Below the pieces are notes generated by a model. That model had not been told where the DNA came from, searched no databases, and worked only from the letters and a program-made list of their open reading frames with translations. Shown piece after piece: positions 3,221-41,335 of a stretch of DNA of 50,397 nucleotides (position 1 is the first letter of the stretch; every line of letters starts with the position of its first letter). Position numbers and translations under genes: made by a program. Source of the stretch: Girardia tigrina. Taxonomy: Eukaryota. The DNA is taken from contig MQRK01196336.1 in the NCBI GenBank assembly GCA_001938485.1, forward strand, positions 41,575-91,971. Reading direction: 5' to 3'.

Positions 3221-3944
3221 TTTTATTGATGTGTTTAATAATCAATATATGTAGCAATCAAACAAAAAACTGTTCAACAAAATGTTAAGTCAGTGTCAAA
3301 TTATAACTATTTGAATTTATTGTAATCATGCTTACAACCTAATATAATAAATGATATCAAAAACGACATTACTAGATCATAATTAAAGACTCTTAAACGA
3401 TTATTCGTGTAACATACAATAATCCTTTGACATAATTTCAAACTTTCATGTTCAAACTACATAAAACTTTGTGAGAATATCCTCTTTGTATTGCAGATGT
3501 ACTAAGTTAACATTAGGTTCCATTAATTTTCCTTCAAAATTTACAATCCAGACTTTTTTCTTTTTTTAGTGCAATTACCTTGAGAGTTTCATCCAGACAA
3601 ATTTAAGCATTTTGCAAAAAAACACAATTTTTTTTACATTCATTAAAATGAGTTAAATTTTTGTTAAATTGAACGGGATTTACAGAAAAACAGTAATAAT
3701 ATTTTTACGATTTTTCCCATTTAATTTTTTTATTAAGAAAGTATCATATGGTTCTCAAGGACACTTGATATTTACAATCAAGCAAATGTTTATTAATAAA
3801 ACTTAGTATTAATCGATTGAAAAAAAATGTAATTGCTTTTCCCATGCTTTATATTAGCTTGCTTTCTATGTGTTTAATTACTTATGTATATTATTATATA
3901 TATTATACTTTTAAATTAATTCCAATGGCAATCGGGTTAATAAA

Positions 3945-4770
3945 ACAAAAAATAGCCATTTTTCCAAACATTTATTTTTATTTTGTAATACTAGTTTCGC
4001 CATATTGGCATCTTCAGTTGACTAATTGAAATTTCAGATTTAAGTCCCTTTTATATAGCGGTAGACTGTTACGCAATACTACTCAATTTAAGGCTTTTTT
4101 TATTATTATTTACTTTAATTTAAAAAAAAATTAACAAGAAAAAACGCCTAAAAATCAATATTCAAAATTTTAATTATTTATTCAAAAAGAAAAAGAAAGA
4201 GACAAAAAGAAGAAAACTTAAAAAAAACAGAAGACACAAAAAAAACTAAGAATTAAAATATTTTAATATAATTTGAGGAGTCACTTTCAACATTTAAGCA
4301 TGGTTCAAAGTGATTCCTCAAATTATATTAAAATATTTTAATTCTTAGTTTTTTTTATGTCTTCTGTTTCTTTTAAGTTTTCTTCTTTTTGTCTCTTTTT
4401 CTTTTTTTCTTTTTGAATAAATAATTAAAATTTTGAATATTGATTTTTAGGCGTTTTTTCTTGTTAATTTTTTTTTAAATTAAAGTAAATAATAATAAAA
4501 AAAGCCTTAAATTGAGTAGTATNNNNNNNNNNNNNNNNNNNNNNNNNNNNNNNNNNNNNNNNNNNNNNNNNNAAGAAAGAGACAAAAAGAAGAAAACTTA
4601 AAAAAAACAGAAGACACAAAAAAAACTAAGAATTAAAATATTTTAATATAATTTGAGGAGTCACTTTCAACATTTAAGCATGGTTCAAAGTTGAAAAAAA
4701 AAAAAGCAAAAAAACTAGTATTACAAAATAAAAATAAATGTTTGGAAAAATGGCTATTTTTTGTTTTCTT
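3945..4770. mobile_element. Penelope-like pseudo-LTR remnant in fold-back (inverted) arrangement, partly unresolved by the assembly gap
   Basis: 3945-4310 is the reverse complement of the 3' end of the PLE at ~15910-16277 (EPCLNVESDSSNYIKIF*). 4311-4522 is an inverted copy of ~4078-4281, and 4573-4690 repeats ~4193-4310. Confidence 0.85.
3985..4021 (-). ncRNA. Minimal type-I hammerhead ribozyme (PLE-associated), weakened stem I
   Basis: Minus strand UCAA-CUGAAGA-U-GCCA-AUA-UGGC-GAAA-CUAG-UA-UUAC: core and stems II/III intact, stem I only 2 bp. Confidence 0.7.
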
Positions 4771-4845
4771 ATACATATATATATATATATATATATCATT
4801 TTTAACGAGCAATGTAAAAAAACAACCCTGTGTAATACATTCATT

Positions 4846-6069
4846 CATAATCACCATTCTTCTTTATAACATTAGATGCATTGTATCAGTTTTCCCATCT
4901 CAGATGACCATCGATCAGCATAAATGTTTTTCAGTTCTGATGTAATGAATTGATATAACTCATTTGCAGATTGAAAATTGGTTTTGTGTCGCTGATCATC
5001 CAAGTAAAAGTGAATAAAGCGATCCAAGATGTTATAATCAGGGGAATATGGTGATTGACGGAGCAAGGTAGCATTCTTGTTTGCGAGAAACATGGACGTC
5101 ACTTTGGAAACATGAGGCCTCGCGTTGTCTTGCACGAAAATCAGGTTTCTCCAGTTGAGTGGAAACACATGTCGACTAAACTTCTTCTCCATATTAACAA
5201 GAAAAGTGACAAAACGCTCGCTTTTCATGCTTTCTCTCTCCTGCAGCAGTTCGCAATGATATTTTCCAGTTAAGGATACTTCGATGACAGACATAATTTT
5301 TCTGTCAAACTGGCTACGTTTCACGACATGAATGGGTTCACTGTGATCACCATCAGGAGAGACCCAGCAACGGTTGCTTCTTTTCTTGCCAACAGTTCTC
5401 ATGTAAAGCCACTTCTCATCCACCATCACAATGTGTTTATGTTGGTGTTTGATTTTCAAAATTTTCAACCATTCCTTTGCAGCAGTGACACGATTAACCT
5501 TTTGATCATTTGACAATGCATGATGAACCAACTTACAGGCAACAGGCCGAAAGCCCAAATAGTCACTCACAATACGCTGAATGGTTCTATGACTGAGGGA
5601 TGTCTCATCTTCAATTTCCTCAATAGTCATTGCACCATTGGCGTTAATAATTCCAGAGACCAACAGAATGTTTTCAAGGGTTGTTTTTGTTGATTTTCTC
5701 CCGCAGTTTTCCCAAGCAAAAAAAGTCTTGCCATTGTCAAATTCAGTTATCCACCGATACACTGTAGATTCTCCAACACTGTCAGTACCATGAACAGAGA
5801 TAATTTCCTGATAAATTTTACTTCCCGTTATGCCAAGTGAATAACGGGAAAAGGTATAGAAACGAAGATTTTTTCGATTTTCCGCCATCATACAGACAAA
5901 TAAATCAACCAATATTCAAACAAGTATTCAATAAATATTTTCTGTCAATATTTTTTTAACTATTACATATTTTTACTCTTTATATGTTACTATATACTGC
6001 GCAAGTAATTTCCGCCTTTACAGATCACAAACAGAAATATAACATCATTCTCACTCTTTCTGGTACGAA

Positions 6070-6275: not shown

Positions 6276-6349
6276 TTAATTTCTTTAAATCAAATGGCAA
6301 TTTAGTCATTAAACAAAAATAAAACCATTTTAATTTTAAATTTTTATTG

Positions 6350-6387
6350 GAAAACATGTTTCACCACTTTTGTGGCATCTTCAGTTC
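6350..6387 (-). ncRNA. Minimal type-I hammerhead ribozyme (PLE-associated)
   Basis: Minus strand GAA-CUGAAGA-U-GCCAC-AAAA-GUGGU-GAAA-CAUG-UU-UUC: stem I GAA/UUC, stem II GCCAC/GUGGU, palindromic stem III ACAUGU, GUU cleavage triplet. Confidence 0.78.
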
Positions 6388-7009
6388 TGTATTTAATTAG
6401 AAAGTTATTGTTAATATAGAAAGATGACCATTACGTCACAGTGTGTTACGTCAAAATACTCTAATATGATTGGACGAATCACTTTGCACATTTAGACTAG
6501 GTTTACAAAACTTTATCAAGAGTGCTTCAGTAATTGTCTTTTCATAATTGTGATCAAAGTTATTAATCAAAACCCGAAAATCATTATCAAATACCCTCCT
6601 ATGAGTTCCATGACATTTGACTATGTGGTCCAAAATTGAGCTTTTTCTACTTGATTGGGTATGTTCTGCAATTCTAGTACGGACGTGACGATTTGTCTCT
6701 CCAATGTACAATGATTCACACTTGTGACATATATATTGGTAAACTAAATTTGCTTTCATACCCAATTGTGTTTTAGATTTATTTGAGAAGTAATTAGAAA
6801 TTTTATTAGTTAGAAACAATACTTTAATCGTAACACCTACTGGGGCCTGTTTTTCTAAAATTCGTTTAAAATCCCTAGCACCTTCATAATATGGAATTTT
6901 TAAATAAAATTTTTTTTGAATTAATCACTTCCTCAGTTGCATTCAAAGTTTTATTAATTTTGTCTTTTGATTTTAAATAAATTGACTCCACAGTATTTTT
7001 AATGATGTT

Positions 7010-7428
7010 TATTATCAACATCAATATGAAGTTTACAACATTTATTAATATTACAAATGCATTCACTATTTGACATCTCTCTTGATCAATATTTTTTTTC
7101 TGCCTTCAAACTAATTAAATTCAATAAATAAAAATCTGTTAATATCAATTATTAATTATAAAGAATCTAATTGGCTAAAATTAAATGTAAACATTTTTTA
7201 AAAAATAGAACATATTAAATTAATATATTAAAATTTTTAATTACATTAAAAATAAATAATACATGCAATAATTTTTTAAAAATCTTTTTACTTTAAAATT
7301 AAATTAAATTATGTTTAATTAGTAGGAATCAAAGAAAATAGCAATCATCCATCTGTGTAGGAGAGGCACAATCCGAATCAGCATTCTACATGCACAATAT
7401 CAACACATAATTCAAAACATTCCTCACA
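7010..7428 (-). mobile_element. Solo LTR (family A, diverged) inserted into the Penelope ORF
   Basis: Perfect 5-bp TSD ATGTT (7005-7009, 7429-7433); removal restores NGYNKKYLNNIIKNTVESIY. The minus strand starts TGTGAGGAATG, has CTCCTACACAGATGG and ends GTTGATAATA. Confidence 0.85.
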
Positions 7429-8555
7429 ATGTTATTTAAATATTTCTTATTATAACCATTAATACTAAGTCTATTATGAAGAGTATCAATTTCTTTATCA
7501 AAAATTTCAAAAGAAGAAGTTTAACTCCAAACTCTATGCACTAGACCCTTAATCATATTTCTATTATATTTTGGGTCACAGAAACTACTCGGAGTACTGT
7601 AAAGACAAGTGTCCGTTGGTTTTCTGTAGACCTCTGTCATGAATCTATTCTGCTTCTTTTCAATCAAGACATCCAAAAACGATATTTTATTATTACTTTC
7701 ACTTTCACAAGTAAAATTAATGTTTGGATGTAAATTGTTTATAAAGTTTAAAAAAAACTATTCATATCTTCCTTCTTTTTAAATATTAGAAAAGTATCAT
7801 CTACATACCTGGTATAGAAGATTGGTAATTCACCTGTAAAATTTTTAAATTTTTGCTTCAAATTTTGTAAGAAAATTGAAGCCATTAACGGAGCCAATGG
7901 AGAACCCATTGCAACTCCATCAATTTGCATATACCAATTATCATTAAACAAGAAGGGAACATTCTTAGTGCTGAATTCAAGCAACGCTTTCAGGGCTTTA
8001 GTACTCATTGATTTTAATTTATCTTCAACCAATTCATCCCAAAGATCAACACATAACTGAATCGTCTCCTCTAATGGGATATTAGTGAAAAGATTTACCA
8101 CATCAAATGAGACCATAGTTTCACTTTCCGAATTAACTTCTAAATTTATAATCTTTTCTACGAATTCAAAACTATCCTTATATTCTAAAGGATTATTTAT
8201 TAATGGTTTTAATAATTTAACATTAGCAACATTATATTGTGCACTTCCAATCATTGACAACACAGGCCTCATCGGGATGTCTGTTTTGTGTACTTTTGGA
8301 AGACCGTATAACTTAGAAGGTTGTGACCCTTGAGCTAGTAAACTGTTTTTAAGAGTAGAATTTAAATCATAAGTTTTTATAAAATGTGGAGTCAATTTAT
8401 TTAAAATCAAAAGACAAAATTAATAAAACTTTGAATGCAACTGAGGAAGTGATTAATTCAAAAAAAATTTATTTAAAAATTTCATATTCCGAAGGTGCTA
8501 GGGATTTTAAACGAATTTTAGAAAAACAGCCCCAGTAGGTGTTACAATTAAAGTA

Positions 8556-8924
8556 TTGTTTCTAACTAATAAAATTTCTAATTACTTCTCAAATAAATCT
8601 AAAACACAATTGGGTATGAAAGCAAATTTAGTTTACCAATATAAATGTCACAAGTGTGAATCCTTGTACATTGGAGAGACAAATCATCACCTCCGTACTA
8701 GAATTGCAGAACATACCCAATCAAGTAGAAAAAGCTCAATTTTGGACCACATAGTCAAATGTCATGGAACTCATAGGAGGGTATTTGATAATGATTTTCG
8801 GGTTTTGATTAATAACTTTGATCACAATTATGAAAGGACAATTACTGAAGCACTCGTGATAAAGTTTTGTAAACCTAGTCTAAATGTGCAAAGTGATTCG
8901 TCCAATCATATTAGAGTATTTTGA
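8556..8924 (+). pseudogene. GIY-YIG endonuclease-coding segment in the inverted pseudo-LTR
   Basis: 122-aa ORF nearly identical to 6451-6819 on the opposite strand. Confidence 0.85.
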
Positions 8925-9149
8925 CGTAACACACTGTGACGTAATGGTCATCTTTATATATAAACAATAACTTTCTAATTAAATACAGNNNNNNNNNNNN
9001 NNNNNNNNNNNNNNNNNNNNNNNNNNNNNNNNNNNNNNNNNNNNNNNNNNNNNNNNNNNNNNNNNNNNNNNNNNNNNNNNNNNNNNNNNNNNNNNNNNNN
9101 NNNNNNNNNNNNNNNNNNNNNNNNATATATATATAAACCTATTTTTGAA

Positions 9150-11045: not shown

Positions 11046-11339
11046 TTAATTTAGTTCAAGATTGTTTTATAAAATGATCATTGAATATGTTTCAGTGTTT
11101 TATACATCATCATCAGCAATTATAATTTGTTACACATGATATGTTTTATAGTAAATAAAATTTATAATTTGGAAAAAATGGTAAAATTATTAAATTAAGA
11201 AAATTTTTTTAATATTTTTGGATATTAATGACGCATTTTTTTATTTAATTAAAGATTTTAAAAATTGAGATGACCTTACTTTGTCATTTTGACAGTCAAT
11301 TAATGTGATATAGTGTCATATCAACAATGATTCAACGTA

Positions 11340-13016: not shown

Positions 13017-15660
13017 TTCACTTACTTATATATATTCTTGTCCTTAACCAATGTTGGTCAGTTTAGACTTGGAGGACCACACTTTGGCTATTACTTCCTG
13101 TCGTGTAACCGTAAAAAATCAAGAGATAATAAATATAAATAAATTATTTAAATTAAATGTAACAGGGTTTCCCACTTAAGAATACACATAAAAAAGATAA
13201 AAATTTAAGATAATTGTAAATTAAACATACATAAAAGACAATTATTTTTATAATTTTAAACCTTTTTAAATCCATTACTGCGAAATATAGTAAATATTAA
13301 ATGCAAGGTTTCGGGGGACTGACGGCATCTAATAATGAAAATGGAAAAATTCCGGCACTTATTTGTGCTGAAATGGACATTAATAGAACAACGGTTGCCT
13401 CAATTATAACTTTATATAAGTATACTGGACAAATTAGAACGCCGAAAGAAAACAATTCAACATGAGCAATTAATCAGGCAAGAAATCGATAATTATGTAT
13501 CAATTACATGACAAAAAATTGTAACAAAAGTTATCTGATATCAGTGTCAATGTATAGATGTCATCGATTGACCGATGTTTACAAAATTTAAGTTACACAT
13601 TAAATTCTTCGCAATAATGAGAACAATATTGAAAATAGATTCAAATATTGCACCAAAATTTTGACATTGGATGATGAAAAAATTATTGTTTTTGGATGAG
13701 TTTGGTGTTAGTTAAGCCACACGAAAAAAATGTGATTTTTGGAGCAAATGTTTTTAATTTAAAGAATACTACAATTAATCACTCAAATTACAGCTTAACT
13801 CCCTCAGAAATTGATATTTTGAAATTTGGTTCAGACAATGAAATTAAATCAAAATTAGATCAATGGAAAATGAAATCAAAAATGGAGAGTTTTTATAACC
13901 AAATTAATATTAGTCAGGACGAAAAAATAACGACTAAGTTAAAAAATGATCTACATAGAATTAAGGAAAATTATTTACTTAAAAATAAAAAAATGACATT
14001 TAGTGATGAAAAGGTCTTAAAAAATTTAATTAAGAAAAGAGACGATATTTGTATCTCAAAGTTTGATAAAGGCAAAGGGGTATATATTCAAAATAAATCT
14101 GAATATATAGACAAAATGATGCAAATAATTACACCTGATAAATTTTCTGAGATTAAATTGAGACAAAATAATAGATGAACAAAGACTGAATAAATTGATC
14201 AATCAATTAGTAAAAAGTTAAGAATTAAATGAATCCCTTCGTAACGGTTTAATAAGTCAGGGTGCTCAACTGGCTAAATTATACGGATTACCCAAAATTC
14301 ATAAAGATGGTATTCCTATGCGCCCGGTCCTCTCGATGATTAACACAGCGCAATATAAGGTTGCTAAAGTTCTGGAAAGATTATTGAGGCCATTAATTAT
14401 AAACCCGTTGGAATGTAAAAACAGTTTTGATTTTGTTAATCAGATCTTGAATTACAAAGCTAGTTCCAATGAGGAAGTAATGGTGTCTTTTGATGTAGTC
14501 AGTTTATTTACTAATGTTCCTTTAGTTGAAACAATAGACTTGTGTGTCCAATTATGTGAGCAAGTAACTGATAAAACAGTGTCTTCTATGAGTGGTAAAG
14601 CACTGAAGTCACTCTTAGAATTCAGTACAAAGGATGTACCATTTATTTTCAATAATCAATGGTACATGCAAACTGATGGAGTAGCAATGGGGTCTCTCCT
14701 AGCACCATTAATGGCGTCAATTTTCTTACAGAGCTTAGAGAAAAAAATCACAAACTTTACTGGTAGATTTCCCTTACTCTACACGAGATATGTAGACAAT
14801 ATATTTCTCATTTTCCAAAATAAGGGTGATATTGAGGAGTTTTTAAAATTTATGAATTGGTTACATCCAAACATGAAATACACTTGTGAAATTGAAAAAT
14901 CTAACAGTATTTCATTTCTGGACGTCCTCATAAAAAGAATATCGATAAACTACAGTACACAGGTGTTTTGAAAATCAACTGATACTGGATTATACAGTGG
15001 TACCAAAAACTTTTGTGACCCTAAGTATAACAGAATTATGGTAAATGGACTAGTGCATAGAGTATGGAATTTATCTTCCTCATATGGGAATGTTGACGAT
15101 GGTTTAAACGACCTTCAAAATAGATTAGAAAAGAATGGCTACAATAAAAATTTTGTAAATAAGCTAATTAAAGATACCATTGACTCCATATTTAGGAAAT
15201 CAAATAATAAAAGTCATAACATAATCGAAGTTCCAAATAACACTGAGAATTTGTTAAATATCATCTTAAAGATACCATTTTCTGAGGGAGCAAAAGATTT
15301 AAAAAATTCATTAATGAAAAGAACTCCTTCAATTTTTAAATTGAGGGTAATTTTTACCACAAATAAAGTTTCTGGTTTCTTTTCTAATAAATCAAAAACT
15401 CCATTGAGGGTGTAGGCAAATATAGTATATCAGTTTAAATGTCACAAGTGCGAAGCCTTGTACATTGGAGAGTCAAACCGTCATCTTCGAACTAGAATTG
15501 CTGAACATACTCAATCGAGTCGAAACAGTTTCATTCTTAATCATATATTGACTTGAAGGGATCGAGAAAATATAGGGAGTGATAAGGAATTTAGTGTTTT
15601 TTTATGTAAAAATTTTGACAATTATAAGGAGAGGATAATCACTGAAGCATTGTTAATTAA

Positions 15661-15898
15661 CACATTGTGATCGGGCAGTTTTCGGCCGCGTACTAGTGCT
15701 GGTAACGGGTGAAAGGTTTTTACCTGCATGGCTACAACTTTACTGACGCTATATAGCGAAAACTCAAGTATATTGGAACCCGTATTTTAACGTAACCCGC
15801 GCTCCACTAACAATCTATCAAAAACGTATAAATACGTGATCCGCTCTCTAGCATTAATTTGCTAAAAACGTATTAATACGTGATCCGATTACAATGTG
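15661..15898. mobile_element. 238-bp MITE with CACATTG termini and TTAA TSD (piggyBac-like; Chapaev-like alternative)
   Basis: TIR CACATTGTGATCGG / CCGATTACAATGTG (13 of 14 match) with TTAA at 15657-60 and 15899-902; two subterminal copies of AAAAACGTATWAATACGTGATCCG; removal restores the PLE reading frame. Confidence 0.9.
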
Positions 15899-16203
15899 TT
15901 AAGCATTAAAAACCATGCTTAAATGTTCAAAATGATTCTTCAAATTATATTAAAATATTTTAATTCTTAGTTTTCTTTGTCTTCTGTTTCTTCTAATTTG
16001 AAAATAGAAAAAAAAGGATTTAGTTTTCTTCGTTTTGTCTCTTTTTTTGAATAAAAAATTAAAATTTTGAATATTGATTTTTAAGAAGTTTTTTCTTGTT
16101 AATTTTTTTTAAATTAAAGTCAATAAAAAAAGCTTTAAATTGAGTAATATTGCGTAACAGTCTACCGCTATAAAAAGGGACTTAAATCTGAAATTTCAAT
16201 TAG

Positions 16204-16240
16204 TCAACTGAAGATGCCAATATGGCGAAACTAGTATTGA
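16204..16240 (+). ncRNA. Minimal type-I hammerhead ribozyme (PLE-associated)
   Basis: UCAA-CUGAAGA-U-GCCA-AUA-UGGC-GAAA-CUAG-UA-UUGA: stem I UCAA/UUGA, stem II GCCA/UGGC, palindromic stem III ACUAGU, GUA cleavage triplet. Confidence 0.88.
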
Positions 16241-17234
16241 AAAATAAAATTTTTGGAAAAATGGCTATTTTTTGTTTTATATATATATATATATATATAG
16301 TAGTGATTGGGTCACTACATATCTATTAAGGTTCAGGGCCAGGAGAGTCCCCATTAATGTACTATATACAAGAGAGATCATATAAAACAACATTCTGAAA
16401 TGTTCCTCCCCGATCCATTTTTTGACATTCTAAAGCGAAGATAGAACCACATTATTCTTCGTTCCAAAAAGTTGAAAGCTTTCACTAGCAGAATTTAATT
16501 AAGCAAATTGAACTCAGCATCGGTTTGATCTGATTTCTCTCACAATAGCAAAATGAAATCGTTAATTAAATGCGGCAAAAGATAAAAGAATTACATTAAA
16601 ACATTGTTCTGAAAAGACTCGAAAACGTCTCGCAAAATCGATGTACCTAGAAATATGTAATTAATTTGTTTTAATTAGCGCTAAATGTACAGTAAATTTG
16701 GATCTTAAAGCAAAGGTGGAGTGTCATTGACTGTCATTCCGCGTAATCATTTCCTTTTTGTAAAATGATACGATTCCCTTCATATATTTCAATTAGATTT
16801 CGAATTGTAAATATAATTATAATAGAAATTATATTTTATGTTAAAATATTTATATAAATAATTATAAATAAAATGTATTATATATTGAAAATAACATCAT
16901 AATTCCATAACGTGTGATTTATTTATTATTTTAGAAAATTAATTAATTTAGCAAACCTTAATATAATTTTACTTAAAAAAATAATTATTATTAAAAAATA
17001 TTTTATTCTTTAAATTTTATTGTTTAACATTTTAGACATAACATTTAATTTTGTAAAAAGACTTTGGGTGTATGAAGGTTTAAATAATAACTTTGACATT
17101 CAGATTTAACGAAATATTACATAATTTATATGATATAAGAATAGGTAAAATAAGGATAAAAAATAATGATAAAAAATAAGGATAATAGATTCGAAAAAAG
17201 AATACTAAAGTTAAGAAAAAATATTTTAAAAGAA

Positions 17235-18548: not shown

Positions 18549-19640
18549 ATGGCGACTAACGATGCAATGGATATCTTCACGGGTCAACTGTTACCTGAAA
18601 AGTACAGAAAAGACGATAATGTGGAGAGATTTATTGAAGAATGTGAAACATTCTTTAATTTTGCAGGAATAGCGAAGACCAAACAAGAGACAATAGTCAT
18701 TTGTTTGTTAGAGAGAGAACTGAAAGATCGATACAAAGCGGTAGATAAGATAATTGTAAGTTATAAAGACCGATTGAGAAAAGCATTCTCTCGAACTTTC
18801 TCACTATTTGAAGATCTGACTGAGGTATGCCAGTACAGGATGAAGGAAGATATACCGGAAGTATTTTTGAGAAAGTAGAAAAGCTCGCGGCCAAGATCTT
18901 GAAACATGACTTGTCAAAAGAGGCCCCTCGGAAGCATTATTGTTACATTTTTATGACGATGTGAACATAAAAAAGGAAGTGAGACTTAACAAAATGAAAT
19001 GAATTGATGAGATAAAAGAAAAAGGCAGTACATGACGTGAAAAGTGTGACAGAGGACGTGAATGTTGTAAGAGACCAGGGGATGCTAAACAGATCCCTGA
19101 GTTACAGAGAAGCAGTAACAGGGGATGGTAGAAATATTACAGAATACGCTCAAGGTATGAAAGCGGTCAAATGTAGAAATTGTGAAAAAGTAGGTCACAT
19201 AAGTGAAACATGTAGACAAAGAAAACCAAACAAGTGTTTCGGATGTGGAAAAGAAGGACACATGATAAGAAATTGTTCGGAAAGGAGACCAATAAAATGT
19301 CATGGTTGTGGACAACAGGGACACGTAAGAAGAAACTGTCTAAACATCGAATGCAAAAGATGTCAAGATAAAGGTCACAGTGAAAGTGAATGTTATACAA
19401 ACCTAAATTGCAGAAGAAGATAGCAAAATAAAGGTGACAATAACATCAAGGAACGGGATACAATCAACAAAGATATAGAGATAGAGAAGACAGAAGACTA
19501 GGAGATAATCGGAGATTCGTGAATAACATTCAAGAAAAATATGAAGAATCGGTGACAGGAAGTGAAAACCCAAAAGGCAACACCTCGAAAGCAGTGGAGC
19601 CAGTCGGGGCAATAAATTAAAAGATACCAGTGAATCCCAA
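18549..19640 (+). mobile_element. Degraded Ty3/Gypsy-like gag with four CCHC zinc knuckles
   Basis: ORFs 18513-18878 (..PEKYRKDDNVERFIEECETFF..) and 19037-19423 with four CX2CX4HX4C motifs; frameshifts and stops lie between them. Confidence 0.82.
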
Positions 19641-32997: not shown

Positions 32998-34494
32998 TTA
33001 ATCTTTACAAAATACTAAAGTATGACCTAAAGGGGAATGTACGACTCCTCCACTTGTTCCAGAGACAATTCTCTCAAAGTTCTCTAAAGTTTCGTTAGAT
33101 AACCGTATTGTAAACTTACCAAGAATCGTGGTTATAACATTAAAAATTTGGATTTTACCAACACCTTCTCCAAGACAACTTCTTTTTCCTATTCCAAAGG
33201 AAATTAATTTATTATTCGGTTGAAATTTTCCACTTTCTTTATCCAAAAATCTATAGGGATTAAATTTATTTGGATTTTCCCATATTGCTTCATTAAAATT
33301 GAGAGAATATTGTTCTCCAATTATTGTATCAGAAGGTTTTAATAAGAATCCCCGAAAACTTACTTCTTTTTGTAACCTGTGTTGGAAGGTCGGTATCACA
33401 ATAAAGTAGCGGTGACATTCTTCAAGGAAAGCCTGTGTAAAAGGAAAATACCGTTTCTGTTCGAAGGTAACCTTCCCAAATTGTTTTTTGATTTCCTTTA
33501 TTTCCGTCTTCATAACGTTTTGATAATCTTCATGTCTCGCAATAAGAAGTAAACACGCGGAAACGAAGCTTGTAAGGGTATCAGTACCAGCTAAAAACAA
33601 ATCGAAACAACTTTGTAAGATTTCGTCTACGGGTACTTCTTCTTTAATGTAAAAATCTAAAATACATTGAGGTTCATTTTCAGATTGATATTTTTCCAAT
33701 TTCGATTTATATTTTTCTTCTGTCATTTTTCTGAGGAATAAAATTGCGTCCTCAAATTTTATTGAGATGGGAAACAAATATTTAACTAATGAAAACGAGC
33801 GATACTTCCATAGCAATGTCAGCGTTGAAAAATCCGTTTGGGTTAAAAATTGAATTTGATGAAATATCTTCTTCAACTCAATACACGACGTTGCCGTATC
33901 TTCGTCCTGTCCATAAATTAACATATTAATAATATTAAAGAACATTTTGAAAACATTTGGTTCAATGCATATCTCTTGGCCACAGTTGGCGACGATATCT
34001 TCGGAAAGTCTTTCGAGTTCACTTATGGAAAGATCATTAAATTCTTTCTTTCCGATTCCCAAAGCATGGAAAGCTTTCAATGTCAAGGTTCTATTTTTTT
34101 TCCACGGTTCATTTTCATTAACCAATATACCTTTAAAGTTGTTGGATAAAATATCCATTCCAAAATATTTGGGACGTCCACTGAATAATACTTTATTATT
34201 AATATAAGCATCATAAATAACTTCATATGATGACAATAATATAAATCTAAAGTTTCCCAATGTGAATTTAGAAATGTCCCCATAATCTTCCTTAAGTTGT
34301 TGGTAGAAACGTTTTTGATTAAAATTTTTACCTTTTAAAAATGATTTATAAACTAGATACGGAAGAACTCCTAATATTGGAAGACTGACCGGTCCAGGAG
34401 GAGACTTGGATCTTGTATTTATGAGCAACCAGCAAATACACAGGAAGAAGAATGTACAGAATATTGAAACCAAGTTGATGAGAAGAGCGATCAT
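32998..34494 (-). CDS. Microsomal cytochrome P450, clan 2-like, 498 aa, single ORF
   Basis: N-terminal TM anchor, PPGP hinge, WKKNR C-helix, AGTDT I-helix, ECHR (ExxR), FNPYRF and heme motif FGIGKRSCLG. Confidence 0.96.
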   Translation of the reverse strand: MIALLINLVSIFCTFFFLCICWLLINTRSKSPPGPVSLPILGVLPYLVYKSFLKGKNFNQKRFYQQLKEDYGDISKFTLGNFRFILLSSYEVIYDAYINNKVLFSGRPKYFGMDILSNNFKGILVNENEPWKKNRTLTLKAFHALGIGKKEFNDLSISELERLSEDIVANCGQEICIEPNVFKMFFNIINMLIYGQDEDTATSCIELKKIFHQIQFLTQTDFSTLTLLWKYRSFSLVKYLFPISIKFEDAILFLRKMTEEKYKSKLEKYQSENEPQCILDFYIKEEVPVDEILQSCFDLFLAGTDTLTSFVSACLLLIARHEDYQNVMKTEIKEIKKQFGKVTFEQKRYFPFTQAFLEECHRYFIVIPTFQHRLQKEVSFRGFLLKPSDTIIGEQYSLNFNEAIWENPNKFNPYRFLDKESGKFQPNNKLISFGIGKRSCLGEGVGKIQIFNVITTILGKFTIRLSNETLENFERIVSGTSGGVVHSPLGHTLVFCKD

Positions 34495-35483
34495 TTGCGA
34501 ATTTTATGTCTAAACTTACAATAAAAGATTCCATTAGATAAACATCGTAAAATGTTTTGTTTGTCTACATTATTCATGATTGTTTAAATTAATGACTAAT
34601 TTAATAAATAAATTTTCTTTGAGTAAAAAAAATATATTTTCAATAAATGAACTAAATACACAAAAGAAGTAATACATGTAACCCTCGATTTACGTCGCAG
34701 TTACGTTACTACGAAAACCATTCAATCGAAACGATGTAAGATGAACCATGATATAGTTTGAGGTATTGGATTAGGTTCTAAGTTATTCAATAATTCATAT
34801 CCAATATTTGACCGTTTTAAAGGTAATTTGGGGTCGTAAAATTCAAAAATTAGTTTTTCTCTACATAATATTAAACTATAAATATATGATGCATCTTACT
34901 TTATACCATGCGCATGTTCTATATAAATCTCATATTAATATACCTTTTGATCATAATTATATTAACATGTCCACTAATTATACAAAATACATTGACTTCA
35001 ACCAGGGTCGTACACAGAAAAATATTTCGGGGGATGCAATATTACGTAATCAATATGTGGTTTCGATTTTCAAATTTAGAAAAATAAAAATTATTTATTA
35101 TTGAAATGTTGAAATTTATAATACCAACGAATTACCACATAAAAAAATTTTATTAGTAATAAAATTACGTAAATTTATAGAATAATTATGGAAGCATTAG
35201 TCTTATGAAGTTCTTCGACATAGTGTCTAAAATATTCAGTTAAAAAGACATTAATGTAATTAAGATCAAAATTCAATTTTTTCGGGGGGGATTTTTTAAT
35301 TTTCAAATTATTAAATATTTTGGATCGTTCACCTTCAAAATACAAGGATTTTAACTTATTGTTATTGATATTCAGTTAAAGAAACTGTAATGTAATTAAG
35401 ATCAAAATTCAATTTTTTCGGGAGGATTTCTTTTAATTTGCAAAACATTAATTATTTTTGATAGTTCACATTTAAAACTATTG

Positions 35484-37340
35484 CAGTATTTATCGGACTA
35501 TAAACCGCGGTATGAAAATTAAAAAAAAATTGGTTAGACATATACGCGTGTGCGACTTATGTAAAAATAAAAACATCAATATATAAAAACAAAACCAATA
35601 ATTTTATTTTAAGATTATTCGATTTCCTCGAATCCATCAAAATCTTCATCATCTATTATTTCAAATGTTTCGAAAATGTGCAAAAATTCCGTTTGGATTT
35701 CTTGTAAATCTTTATCCTCACTTCCAGTTTCAATTTCTGAATCATCATCACTTTCGATATTTTCATCATAATTTTGAATCTCTGCTTCCTTAAATCCATT
35801 TTTAATACACTGTGGTGTAACATCTTCCCAGCATTTAACAATCCAATGGCATATTTCTGAATGTGTCACTCTTTTGATTTTCTCCGTTTTGTTGTAAATG
35901 TGACAACCATTGATAATCCAATTTTCCCAATGTATCTTTAGCTTAGATTTGAACGAGTTTTTAACTGATAGATCAAGTGGTTGAAGGCTTTTAGTGAGGC
36001 CACCAGGGATCACTGCAAGTTCAGAATATTTTGACTTCATTTTTAACTTCCTTATTAAGATGACATCTAGCAGAATCGTATATGAAAAGAGATTTTGGCT
36101 TAAAAAAGGAATCGTTTCTTTTTATACAAATTTTTTGTATCCATTTTTTTTATTATTTCACTATATTATTTCAACAATAATTGTAATAATTAAATTGAAA
36201 AAAAGACGTAAACAATAAGATAAAATGATGAAAATAATTGTATAAAAATAAAAAGACAAAATAGTTAACAGATTAATAGAGAAAGAATTTTTTCTGCCTC
36301 CTTCAACAAGAGTCAGATAACCTTTTCTTCTGGACTCATTCGGGGTTGATGAGAAGCTCGTAAAATTTTACTATTAACCCCAACGTTTAATGAATTTTTA
36401 TTGACTTCAACAATAATTCCTTTTGGAAAATTTCCTTTGGGCATTGTTAGTCTTTTAAATATCACCATTGGTTTACATTTTTTTCAGCGGCAGTTACAGT
36501 TAATATAACTAAAGTTATATTTTTCATTTCCGGTTGTTTTGATCAGGATATCTTTTTTCCATTTTCATCAACTGTCCTTGTATCCGGAATATCGAAACTA
36601 ACAGAAACTTCATCCATATTCCCAAGATGCTTCAAATCGATATCTCTCTTTTTATCTTTAATAAAAAGTAAAAATGATTCTTTTTTTCTTCCCAATTAGC
36701 TGGCAACGATGGTCTGACTGAATTTACTGCTCTCATGCTTAAATTATTTATTTTCATAAATATTGTGCACAAACCATTCGTTCCTTTAAAATTTTCTATT
36801 TTAAAATCATCTTTTGCCATTTTTTTCGCTGTTAATCTAATTTCAATTGTAGAAACTTAAAACCATTTCTCCCTTTTCTCAATTACATACTTTTTAATGG
36901 CCTTTTCTAAATCCGGCCAATGTGCAAATCCCCTCTTTTTGCTTTCTTTTTTTCCGGCATTACGTTTAAAAGATTTTTCGATTTTCTCCAATCCCGAATG
37001 TTTTTTTCATTTATATTGAATTCTCTTTCGGCTTTTCTGTTATCATGTTTTTCAGCATAAGCAATAATTTCCAATTTTCTTTCGACCGTAAACGATCTTC
37101 TTGTTTTCTTCATTTTTAACGTGGATTTTAAATTCAAATTATTTTAATAAAACAAAAATAATTAAAGTCAAAATTAAAATAATATTAATTTCTTCATTTG
37201 CATAATTTAAAATAAGTTTTTGATTCAAGTTTTATTGTCACAAAAATATGCGACTTATACGCTGTTGAATTTAATTTTCAAATTTAAAAAACTGGGATGC
37301 GACTTATATGCGAGTGCGACTTATAGTTCGATAAATACGG
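35484..37340 (-). mobile_element. Degraded pogo-family (POGK/Tc2-like) transposon
   Basis: TIRs CAGTATTTATCGGACTATAA / TTATAGTTCGATAAATACGG-TA; subterminal TGCGACTTAT repeats; Brinker-like DBD (RRSFTVERKLEIIAYAE..NIRDWRK), GNMDEVSVSFD, YDSARCH, VIPGGLTKSLQPLDLSV and an acidic tail. Confidence 0.93.
36170..36402. repeat. Unclassified interspersed repeat, copy 2, interrupting the pogo transposase
   Basis: Sits between pogo residues GIIVEVN and SEIIKKWIQK; matches 19995-20223. Confidence 0.9.
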
Positions 37341-39366: not shown

Positions 39367-39817
39367 AATGTAGATAATAATAATAACAAACCTCAAAATT
39401 AGTTTAATCGACTAGAAAAATAATCAGCTTAATAAATAATTTATAATATAAAATGAGTTATGGAATTATATGAATGTAGACGTATTCGTTTTGCACAACT
39501 TTTTATTTATTACTTTAAAATCTGAAAATTTAATAAGAATTTAGATTTCAATAAAACTATTACACAAGTTTTTTGTTCGGAATTCCGCTTCTTAAAAAGT
39601 CACAAATGTCCAAATGTCATTAAGTTTCTTTACTTTGTTGAATAAGTCAAGTCAAAACATGTTCATTTATTTTGTCCAGTTGAGGCTCGAAAACGTCTCA
39701 AATAACGTAAGCGTACGCAAAAGTAAATACCAAACTAAACTTGTTTGCTTTCGCTTTTTACAGTTAACTTGAATAGAAAATGTCATAATAGTCTCTTAAA
39801 AATAAAAATACTGAAAA

Positions 39818-41335
39818 ATGATTTTTATAACTCTTTTAGTAATTAGTTTTATTTGTTTGTTGATTTATAATTTGAAACGTGTTCAAAACGATCCTCCAGG
39901 CCCAAGAGGACTTCCTTTAACCGGAATATTTCCGTTTGTGATGCTTAAAGTCATTTTTAACCCATTACAAAATGAGAATCACTTTTTTAAAAGGATGAAA
40001 CAAAAATATGGCAATATTTGGTCATTTCGACTTAATAATCAACGATATATTGTTCTTGCTTCCCTGGATTTACAAACTGAAGCTTTCAAGAGTCAGGGTA
40101 TGATGTTTTCTGGTCGACCTAAAAGTTCTATGCATGATTATTTTACTCATCGAAGAGGAATTCTTTCTTCTGATGGAGAGGTTTGGCAGTTTTATCGAAA
40201 ATTAACCACTAAAGGTTTACATCAAATTGCTTGTCAGACCAAAGGGTTTGAAGATATAATCCATGAAAACATGACAAAAATGACGCACTACATCGATAAA
40301 AATCAAACTGCATTAGGAACGACATTGCTTTTTCATTCATTGTCTTTAGCCGTTATATTCAAAATAGTGTTTGATAAAGATTTGGATATTTCAGATCCCA
40401 AAATATTATCTTTTGCAGAAAACGTTCAAAAGATAATAAAGCCAAACATTCCTCTATGTAATTCAGTATTCTTTCTTACTGATATTCCTTTAATAAAATA
40501 TTTGTTTTCTGACGCTTTAAACTTGCGTAAAGCGGTTGATAGAAATAAAGAAATTTTAATAGAAATGTGGAAAGAATTAAAGGAAAAATATTTGAAAAAT
40601 GAATTGAAAAACGAATGTATTGGGAGATATTTTATTGATCAATTAGGTCTTAAAGAAAAATCCAAAGATGAAGAGAACTATTTAAATGAATTTAATTTTG
40701 TTCAGAACTTTGTGGATATTGTAAGCGCCGGAAGTGAGACGGTAGCTTCAACCCTTGCGTGGGGTTGCCTGTTGCTGGCCTGCCGAACGGACGTTCAACA
40801 CGTTTTACGAAAAGAACTGAAGGAGTCCTTGAAATGTGAGATCATTCAAAACATTCACTATTCTGAAAGAAACAATCTTCCCAATCTCTGTTCATTTATA
40901 GAAGAACTTTACCGATTTATAACAATAGTTCCACGAACTTTGCATCGACCACTTGAAGACACATCTTTTCATGGATATAAATTGACTCGGGAAGACATAA
41001 TTATTGGCGACACATACACAATTAATCACGACCAAGATTTCTTTTCGAATCCAGATACTTTTCAATATGACCGATTTCTGAACAAATACAAAACAAAATG
41101 CGAAAATAAATTCAATCAACATTTTACTTTTGGTATTGGCAAACGTAATTGCATTGGGGAAAATCTTGGACGGGTAGAAGTTTTCAATATCATAGCTATA
41201 CTTCTATGTTACTACGAAATTCAGTTACCGAAGGATTCAAGATTGAAACTCAAAGAAATCGTAAACGGTGGAAATGGACTCATCTATGCACCTAACCCGC
41301 ATAAGCTAATCTTCCTTCCTATTACTTCTAAGTAA
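39818..41335 (+). CDS. Microsomal cytochrome P450, clan 2-like, 505 aa, single ORF
   Basis: TM anchor, PPGP, WQFYR, AGSET, ELYR (ExxR), FQYDRF and FGIGKRNCIG; AATAAA ~70 bp downstream. Confidence 0.96.
   Translation: MIFITLLVISFICLLIYNLKRVQNDPPGPRGLPLTGIFPFVMLKVIFNPLQNENHFFKRMKQKYGNIWSFRLNNQRYIVLASLDLQTEAFKSQGMMFSGRPKSSMHDYFTHRRGILSSDGEVWQFYRKLTTKGLHQIACQTKGFEDIIHENMTKMTHYIDKNQTALGTTLLFHSLSLAVIFKIVFDKDLDISDPKILSFAENVQKIIKPNIPLCNSVFFLTDIPLIKYLFSDALNLRKAVDRNKEILIEMWKELKEKYLKNELKNECIGRYFIDQLGLKEKSKDEENYLNEFNFVQNFVDIVSAGSETVASTLAWGCLLLACRTDVQHVLRKELKESLKCEIIQNIHYSERNNLPNLCSFIEELYRFITIVPRTLHRPLEDTSFHGYKLTREDIIIGDTYTINHDQDFFSNPDTFQYDRFLNKYKTKCENKFNQHFTFGIGKRNCIGENLGRVEVFNIIAILLCYYEIQLPKDSRLKLKEIVNGGNGLIYAPNPHKLIFLPITSK

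Follow-up and report, generated by a model that had tools for sequence, protein, structure and literature searches.

Does the hammerhead motif at positions 16204–16240 of this 50,397-nt stretch of Girardia tigrina DNA (called the window here) represent a genuine ribozyme, to which element does it belong, and would this copy still cleave? We put a probability of roughly 0.85 on its being a standard minimal hammerhead of a Penelope/Poseidon-type retrotransposon, located in the 3′ pseudo-LTR (pLTR) of a dead copy and likely without cleavage in situ. The motif reads UCAA CUGAAGA U GCCA AUA UGGC GAAA CUAG UA UUGA and is made of the following parts.

16204..16240 (+): minimal type I hammerhead ribozyme, family A (sequence, covariation, exact core copies)
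16204-07/16237-40: stem I
16208-14: core CUGAAGA
16215: extra U, unpaired between 9 and 10.1
16216-19/16223-26: stem II
16227-30: GAAA
16230..16235 (+): palindrome ACUAGU, stem III (sequence, strict descriptor, genome matches)
16236: H17 (A), with the predicted cut between 16236 and 16237

The preliminary description of this DNA had named the core, the extra U, stem II, the GUA triplet and the palindrome, and all of these are present letter for letter. Its four-pair stem I (UCAA/UUGA) is also present in this copy, but the fourth pair (U-A) is confined to one subfamily (16240 is A in 41 and C in 123 of 179 copies), and the stem I of the family therefore has 3 bp. The CUGANGA box and the GAAA-UH core that characterize the minimal type I hammerhead (min-HHR) of Penelope-like elements (PLEs) are both found. 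For stem III to form, two molecules or two copies would have to pair.

An exact search of the 1.43-Gb genome gave 433 occurrences of the 29-nt core and none of its reversed control. Two non-overlapping looser patterns gave 3,944 (control 0) and 11,477 (control 4) matches genome-wide, and related matches total more than 15,000. Hand counts among the matches listed showed the free bases of stem III to be palindromic in 95/100 and 98/100; the family palindromes besides ACUAGU are ACAUGU, ACGCGU and AUAUAU. The conservation of core and stems among other genomic copies, on which the preliminary description had staked its proposal, is thus borne out by the exact cores and by strong covariation over six families. 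With 11 sequences from these families and a structure that we specified, 91.9% of cells were paired, compared with 33–39% in slid controls, and two-sided changes were seen in 7 of the 9 pairs. Stems I and II and the G10.1-C11.1 pair are supported by this covariation, and the extra base U16215 is invariant (11/11). A strict descriptor (core, stem II of at least 4 bp, 6-nt palindrome, H17 and stem I of at least 3 bp) matched twice in the window versus never in 200 locally Markov-shuffled windows. A loose pattern that imposed no pairing gave 14 overlapping matches at 5 sites in the window, against 7.1 expected, which is not significant, and the folding z-score of the motif is −1.7. A covariance-model search with Rfam returned no hammerhead match up to E 5, a miss that we attribute by inference to the absent stem III. 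A chance match in AT-rich DNA, for which the silence of Rfam, the insignificant loose pattern and the modest folding score might be invoked, is refuted by copy number and covariation, with the strict descriptor also against it, and its probability is negligible.

Hammerheads with a short stem III, from the 2017 work of Lunse, Weinberg and Breaker cited in the review PMC6765202, reportedly cleave as dimers and share with the present motif the palindromic short stem III and the PLE association. All the features of the motif, the extra base included, are already described by Cervera and De la Pena in 2014 (PMC4209133). As here, the metazoan PLE pLTR motifs of that report combine a type I core with an unpaired base between positions 9 and 10.1, the G10.1-C11.1 pair, a short stem I and a palindromic stem III; they likewise run to thousands of copies, mostly single, in several families, and include dual motifs on opposite strands. 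In its 2-nt palindromic insert the present motif resembles the variant described there from Drosophila, rotifers, shrimp and mosquito, whereas stem II, with 4 bp, differs from the 7–8 bp of the Schistosoma families (PMC4209133).

The element carrying the motif comprises three parts.

13735..15963 (+): broken, 5′-truncated PLE ORF, reverse transcriptase (RT) followed by a C-terminal GIY-YIG endonuclease (EN) with CCHH residues
15661..15898 (no strand assigned): non-autonomous DNA transposon of 238 bp inside the endonuclease (TTAA duplicated, 14-bp terminal inverted repeats)
15964..16221 (+): 3′ UTR/pLTR, common to dozens of genomic copies

The whole copy spans 13735–16280. It starts some 420 nt into the family ORF, is without a 5′ pLTR and has its 3′ end in (TA)n. 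Profile searches identified the RT domain (PF00078, E 7.8e-13) and the endonuclease domain (PF01541, GIY-YIG, E 2e-05). The ORF is damaged by a frameshift near 14176–14222 and by stops at 14969, 15413, 15554 and 15907; its natural stop is at 15961. The hammerhead lies in the pLTR 243 nt past the natural stop and is linked to the ORF in other copies; relatives of the element are 94–97% identical. Thus a minimal type I hammerhead with a palindromic stem III, in the pLTR of a PLE with a dead ORF, is what the profile matches and covariation also indicate. The frameshift and stops confirm the death of the ORF, but the earlier account missed that the ribozyme overlaps a start codon. The translated RT-EN linker contains no Cys and hence has no CX2-5CxxC motif, the absence of which is the criterion for Penelope/Poseidon given in PMC8557442. 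Two further Penelope/Poseidon traits were found, namely a pLTR with an optional 30–40 nt tail (two tail lengths) and inverted 5′-truncated arms (17 pairs). Placed by its domain features, the element fits the EN+ Penelope/Poseidon PLEs. A PDB search for reference PLE proteins returned none. As for the 238-bp transposon, all 40 scored genome candidates (710 in a first look) match it at 92–100%.

Three other hammerheads were identified in the window.

3985..4021 (−): second family-A hammerhead of the other subfamily, stem I damaged, a separate insertion
6349..6388 (−): family-B hammerhead with palindrome ACAUGU, of another PLE at about 6300–8990
11080..11120 (−): family-D hammerhead, decayed

The region 3940–4790 holds family-A pLTR fragments that are inverted and rearranged and span an assembly gap; homology of one arm starts near the palindrome (16228 equivalent). 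The second PLE family (B) at 6300–8990 has inverted arms with RT and GIY-YIG remnants, and the core AUG of its ACAUGU hammerhead is in frame with its ORF. No tandem array was found at the hammerhead site. Non-LTR retrozymes also carry type I hammerheads related to those of PLE pLTRs (PMC7229834; bioRxiv 10.64898/2026.07.22.740005). They are non-coding tandem repeats, unlike the single motif on an RT-EN remnant seen here, and a retrozyme identity was set aside on these grounds.

Elsewhere, the window contains fragments at 85–2250 matching DNA polymerase B (PF03175) and endonuclease VII (PF02945), which may be a Polinton/Maverick-like remnant, and a Tc1/mariner-type transposase open frame of 347 aa at 4872–5915 (−; DDE_3, Mos1-type HTH). 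There are also a zinc-knuckle (zf-CCHC) fragment at 19016–19423 (+), a DDE_1 transposase fragment at 35615–36121 (−), and two divergent, uninterrupted cytochrome P450 frames of about 500 aa at 32998–34503 (−) and 39815–41335 (+). In the copy L093, elsewhere in the genome, the sequence adjoining the PLE fragment upstream resembles what we take to be small-subunit rRNA.

The ribozyme and the beginning of the family ORF share the following features.

16169..16176 (+): TATA box of the pLTR, 39 nt before C3 (sequence; same spacing in families A, B and C)
16214..16234 (+): AUG formed by A9, the extra U and G10.1, opening a 6-codon upstream ORF (uORF) in family A
16222..16280 (+): duplicated ORF start (the tail), ending in (TA)n, with a private extra A near 16246

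The 3′ strand of stem II contains an ATG (16222) that opens the frame M-A-K-L-V|L..., with an in-frame stop upstream at 16201, and the predicted cut falls after codon 5. From this AUG the copy L137 reads into IEKYNIEVIKKTF, and L087 and L100 extend that sequence into the ORF; the same frame passes through KWLFFVLLTRLPLELIEKYNIEVIKKTF in L137 and L025 toward the ORF N-terminus of L087 and L100. An in-frame 6-nt indel in this region separates two subfamilies. The family ORF likely begins at the AUG in stem II, that is, within the ribozyme, and cleavage would then sever the cap and the AUG from it. As an ORF start we rejected the tail AUG at 16261 (MAIFCF frame), whose frame stops after 15 codons in intact tails. 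In family C the arrangement is the same as in family A, with the core AUG opening a 4-codon uORF, and in family B the ORF is in frame from the core AUG itself, 26 nt before the cut. The TATA box lies 34–39 nt before C3 across families A, B and C. Applying the usual spacing between a TATA box and the start site, transcription would begin near 16198–16202, and the ribozyme would be nearly the whole 5′ leader.

A comparable overlap is seen in PAc, the Poseidon element of Anolis carolinensis (Frangieh et al. 2024, PMC11167929), whose ribozyme cleaved only with the PLE protein. There too, the ribozyme overlaps the ORF start and the cut site is inside the coding sequence. PAc also shares an uncut RNA template, AT-rich targets and two end points downstream, in PAc two RT starts (PMC11167929). 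The distance from core AUG to cut in family B, 26 nt, is that of PAc. Family A differs from PAc in that the core AUG opens the 6-codon uORF and the start of the ORF is another AUG, 15 nt before the cut. Measured into the ORF, the tail ends are at about 59 and 90–100 nt here versus 111–118 in PAc (PMC11167929) and, unlike PAc, the copy at 13735–16280 is dead. In families A, B and C a possible hairpin, AAUGGC...GCCAUU, surrounds the position where short tails end (16258–16280 in the window; longer tails, for example, in L037, L042 and L043). One tail end would be in the loop of this hairpin and the other immediately 3′ of it, an arrangement like that of the RT-initiation stem-loop in PAc. The results and discussion of PMC4209133 make no mention of a start-codon overlap, and the hammerheads described in PMC13725137 have the opposite geometry, cutting before a start codon and promoting translation.

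Insertion junctions were read from the first 100 of 615 tail-pattern matches, with two near-duplicate contigs left out, which recovered 94 distinct copies. In 92 of the 93 informative copies the sequence extends 4 nt or more to the 5′ side of the cut site, so the RNA template of almost every insertion ran uninterrupted through that site. The tail ends were short in 44, long in 43 and other or cut in 9 (n=96), both main positions being downstream of the cut; most of the 17 inverted pairs combine one short and one long tail. Insertion 5′ ends at the cut site were considered as a footprint of cleavage, an idea abandoned with only L175 of the 93 informative copies compatible. The 5′ junctions of L106, L147, L175 and L198 fall at 16232–16235 (equivalent), just before the cut, in a post hoc cluster on which we do not rely, and L189, listed with the junctions near the palindrome, has a 7-nt deletion beginning at the cut site. 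No insertion 3′ end was found at the cut site in 133 distinct cores, some of which had been selected with downstream bases required. Two RNA templates for the inverted arms are unproven: two subfamily markers were discordant in 0/14 and 0/15 pairs, with about 0.43 expected if random. Two of the 17 pairs differ at several markers, and target duplications are unreadable in (TA)n. In L013 (G000:C47514) and L017 (G000:C220518) two or three of the shared polymorphic sites disagree between the arms, a hint of two templates.

The base 5′ of the predicted cut varies. In family A it is A in 53, C in 24, U in 5 and G in none of 82 tail-sampled copies; the first 100 of 643 matches gave A58, C35, U7 and G0 by hand count. 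For family C, the first 100 of 1,149 matches gave about A38, C12, U50 and G0, also by hand count. The cut base is the third position of a Val codon in both families, where GUG would be synonymous. In families B and D it is a second codon position and is nearly monomorphic among the matches listed, being U in all of those of family B. Genome-wide, G occupies the cut base in 16/3,960 and 100/11,577 matches, a frequency at or below that expected from decay of inserted copies. The NUH rule disfavours G at the cut base of a hammerhead, and the A/C/U-not-G pattern is consistent with this rule and with selection for cleavage in active lineages, although it is not proof. The base present largely follows the subfamily (26 of 29 C copies belong to one subfamily and 11 of 12 U copies fall outside it), so only few independent changes are involved. 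About four are implied, too few for the absence of G alone to be significant, and AT bias likewise disfavours G.

The same variation could be read as RT errors made across a cleaved and re-ligated junction. The contrast between A53/C24/U5 of 82 at the cut base and about 1.5% change elsewhere agrees with this, as does the cut base differing in 3/17 inverted arm pairs when two subfamily markers differ in 0/14 and 0/15 (P=0.013 versus a 3% background, post hoc). Against it, the cut base is linked to neighbouring subfamily markers, families B and D are nearly monomorphic among the matches listed, and one of the three discordant pairs differs at further markers. We consider this origin very unlikely; hypermutation of the cut base copy by copy is mostly explained by the subfamily linkage and is retained at low odds.

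Nothing marks the copy at 16204–16240 as preserved. An intact ribozyme is the default, being present in 58 of the 82 tail-sampled copies that cover it (the ribozyme was not a selection criterion), and the core decays like the flank, with 13/902 substitutions versus 34/1900 in the upstream flank (P=0.64). An apparent higher conservation of the ribozyme was discarded, since it came from copies selected by the ribozyme, and the tail-selected sample was used instead. The motif equals the commonest version in the family, and the copy may owe its intactness only to its youth, the family copies being 94–97% alike. No + strand family-A partner was found in the window or 40 kb upstream, and the contig does not continue past the window. 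By nearest-neighbour energies, an inactive fold in which the core CUG pairs with the palindrome is favoured by 3–4 kcal/mol (inactive versus active: monomer −6.9 versus −3.6, dimer −18.1 versus −14.0 kcal/mol; tertiary contacts ignored). Runs labelled as RNA, the label being the tool's guess, contain family sequence over the ribozyme at no more than 0.09 of words, in contigs only. The unique flank 16299–16400 is covered by no RNA-labelled contig, which neither shows nor excludes transcription of the copy. Cervera and De la Pena saw no cleavage of min-HHR monomers and weak cleavage of dimers (PMC4209133), and weak cleavage is probably also what RNA of this copy would show in vitro if engineered as a dimer. 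The proposal that this copy is still cleavage-competent therefore stands only at the level of sequence, but the copy is likely silent in situ, with no + strand partner and the inactive fold favoured.

The copy could still be transcribed from its retained TATA box into the flank and cleave in vivo as a trans dimer with family transcripts. Its core, stems, palindrome and TATAAAAA box are intact, the 433 identical cores offer possible partners, trans dimers are possible in principle, and the RNA-labelled contigs contain family sequence. We regard such activity as quite unlikely given that the unique flank is in no contig, a cis partner is absent, and the inactive fold is favoured by 3–4 kcal/mol. 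The published low in vitro activity and protein dependence (PMC4209133, PMC11167929) and the lack of read ends at the cut site of PAc (PMC11167929) also speak against it. Lacking both a partner and its own protein, this copy appears to be a passive relic.

What the ribozyme would do in an active tandem element can be outlined from the family data. The TATA box of the pLTR would start the RNA a few nucleotides before the ribozyme, which would then make up nearly the entire 5′ leader. Two RNAs would pair via ACUAGU and be cut after codon 5, likely aided by the element's protein as in PAc of the anole. The cut would strip cap and AUG from the ORF and trim read-through tandem transcripts, and uncut RNA would serve as the RT template. 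A tentative reading, possible but by no means favoured, is that the leader acts as an off-switch, in which protein-assisted dimer cleavage removes the cap and AUG of RT-EN as negative feedback, and that the genome records selection for this. The extra U would supply the AUG that is the ORF start in family B, and apparently in PAc, and the uORF start in A and C. The cut base, where it is a synonymous wobble position, would drift among A, C and U, with G not amplified despite insertion from uncut RNA. Our literature searches found, in the texts they returned, no paper on a role in translation feedback or on cut-base wobble.

Alternatively, the main reason for keeping the motif may be its coding sequence together with a structure that pairs RNAs or binds protein, cleavage being incidental. 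The template is uncut RNA, and the catalytic mutants of PAc inserted normally (PMC11167929); codons 1–5 form part of the motif; and Naiad PLEs spread without canonical hammerheads (PMC8557442). Two observations weigh on the other side. The non-coding CUGANGA box is invariant in 11/11 sequences, although these were found through that box, and G at the cut base is limited to 16/3,960 and 100/11,577 despite the synonymous GUG in families A and C. We consider this explanation unlikely.

The single motif at 16204–16240 matters little, as it is one of thousands and of a kind already published. The family data bear on the role of PLE hammerheads, cleavage being dispensable for insertion in vitro. The start-codon overlap in several families, the AUG supplied by the extra U and the A/C/U-not-G wobble of the cut base together offer a natural mutant series for a role in translation control, such as the off-switch tentatively proposed here.
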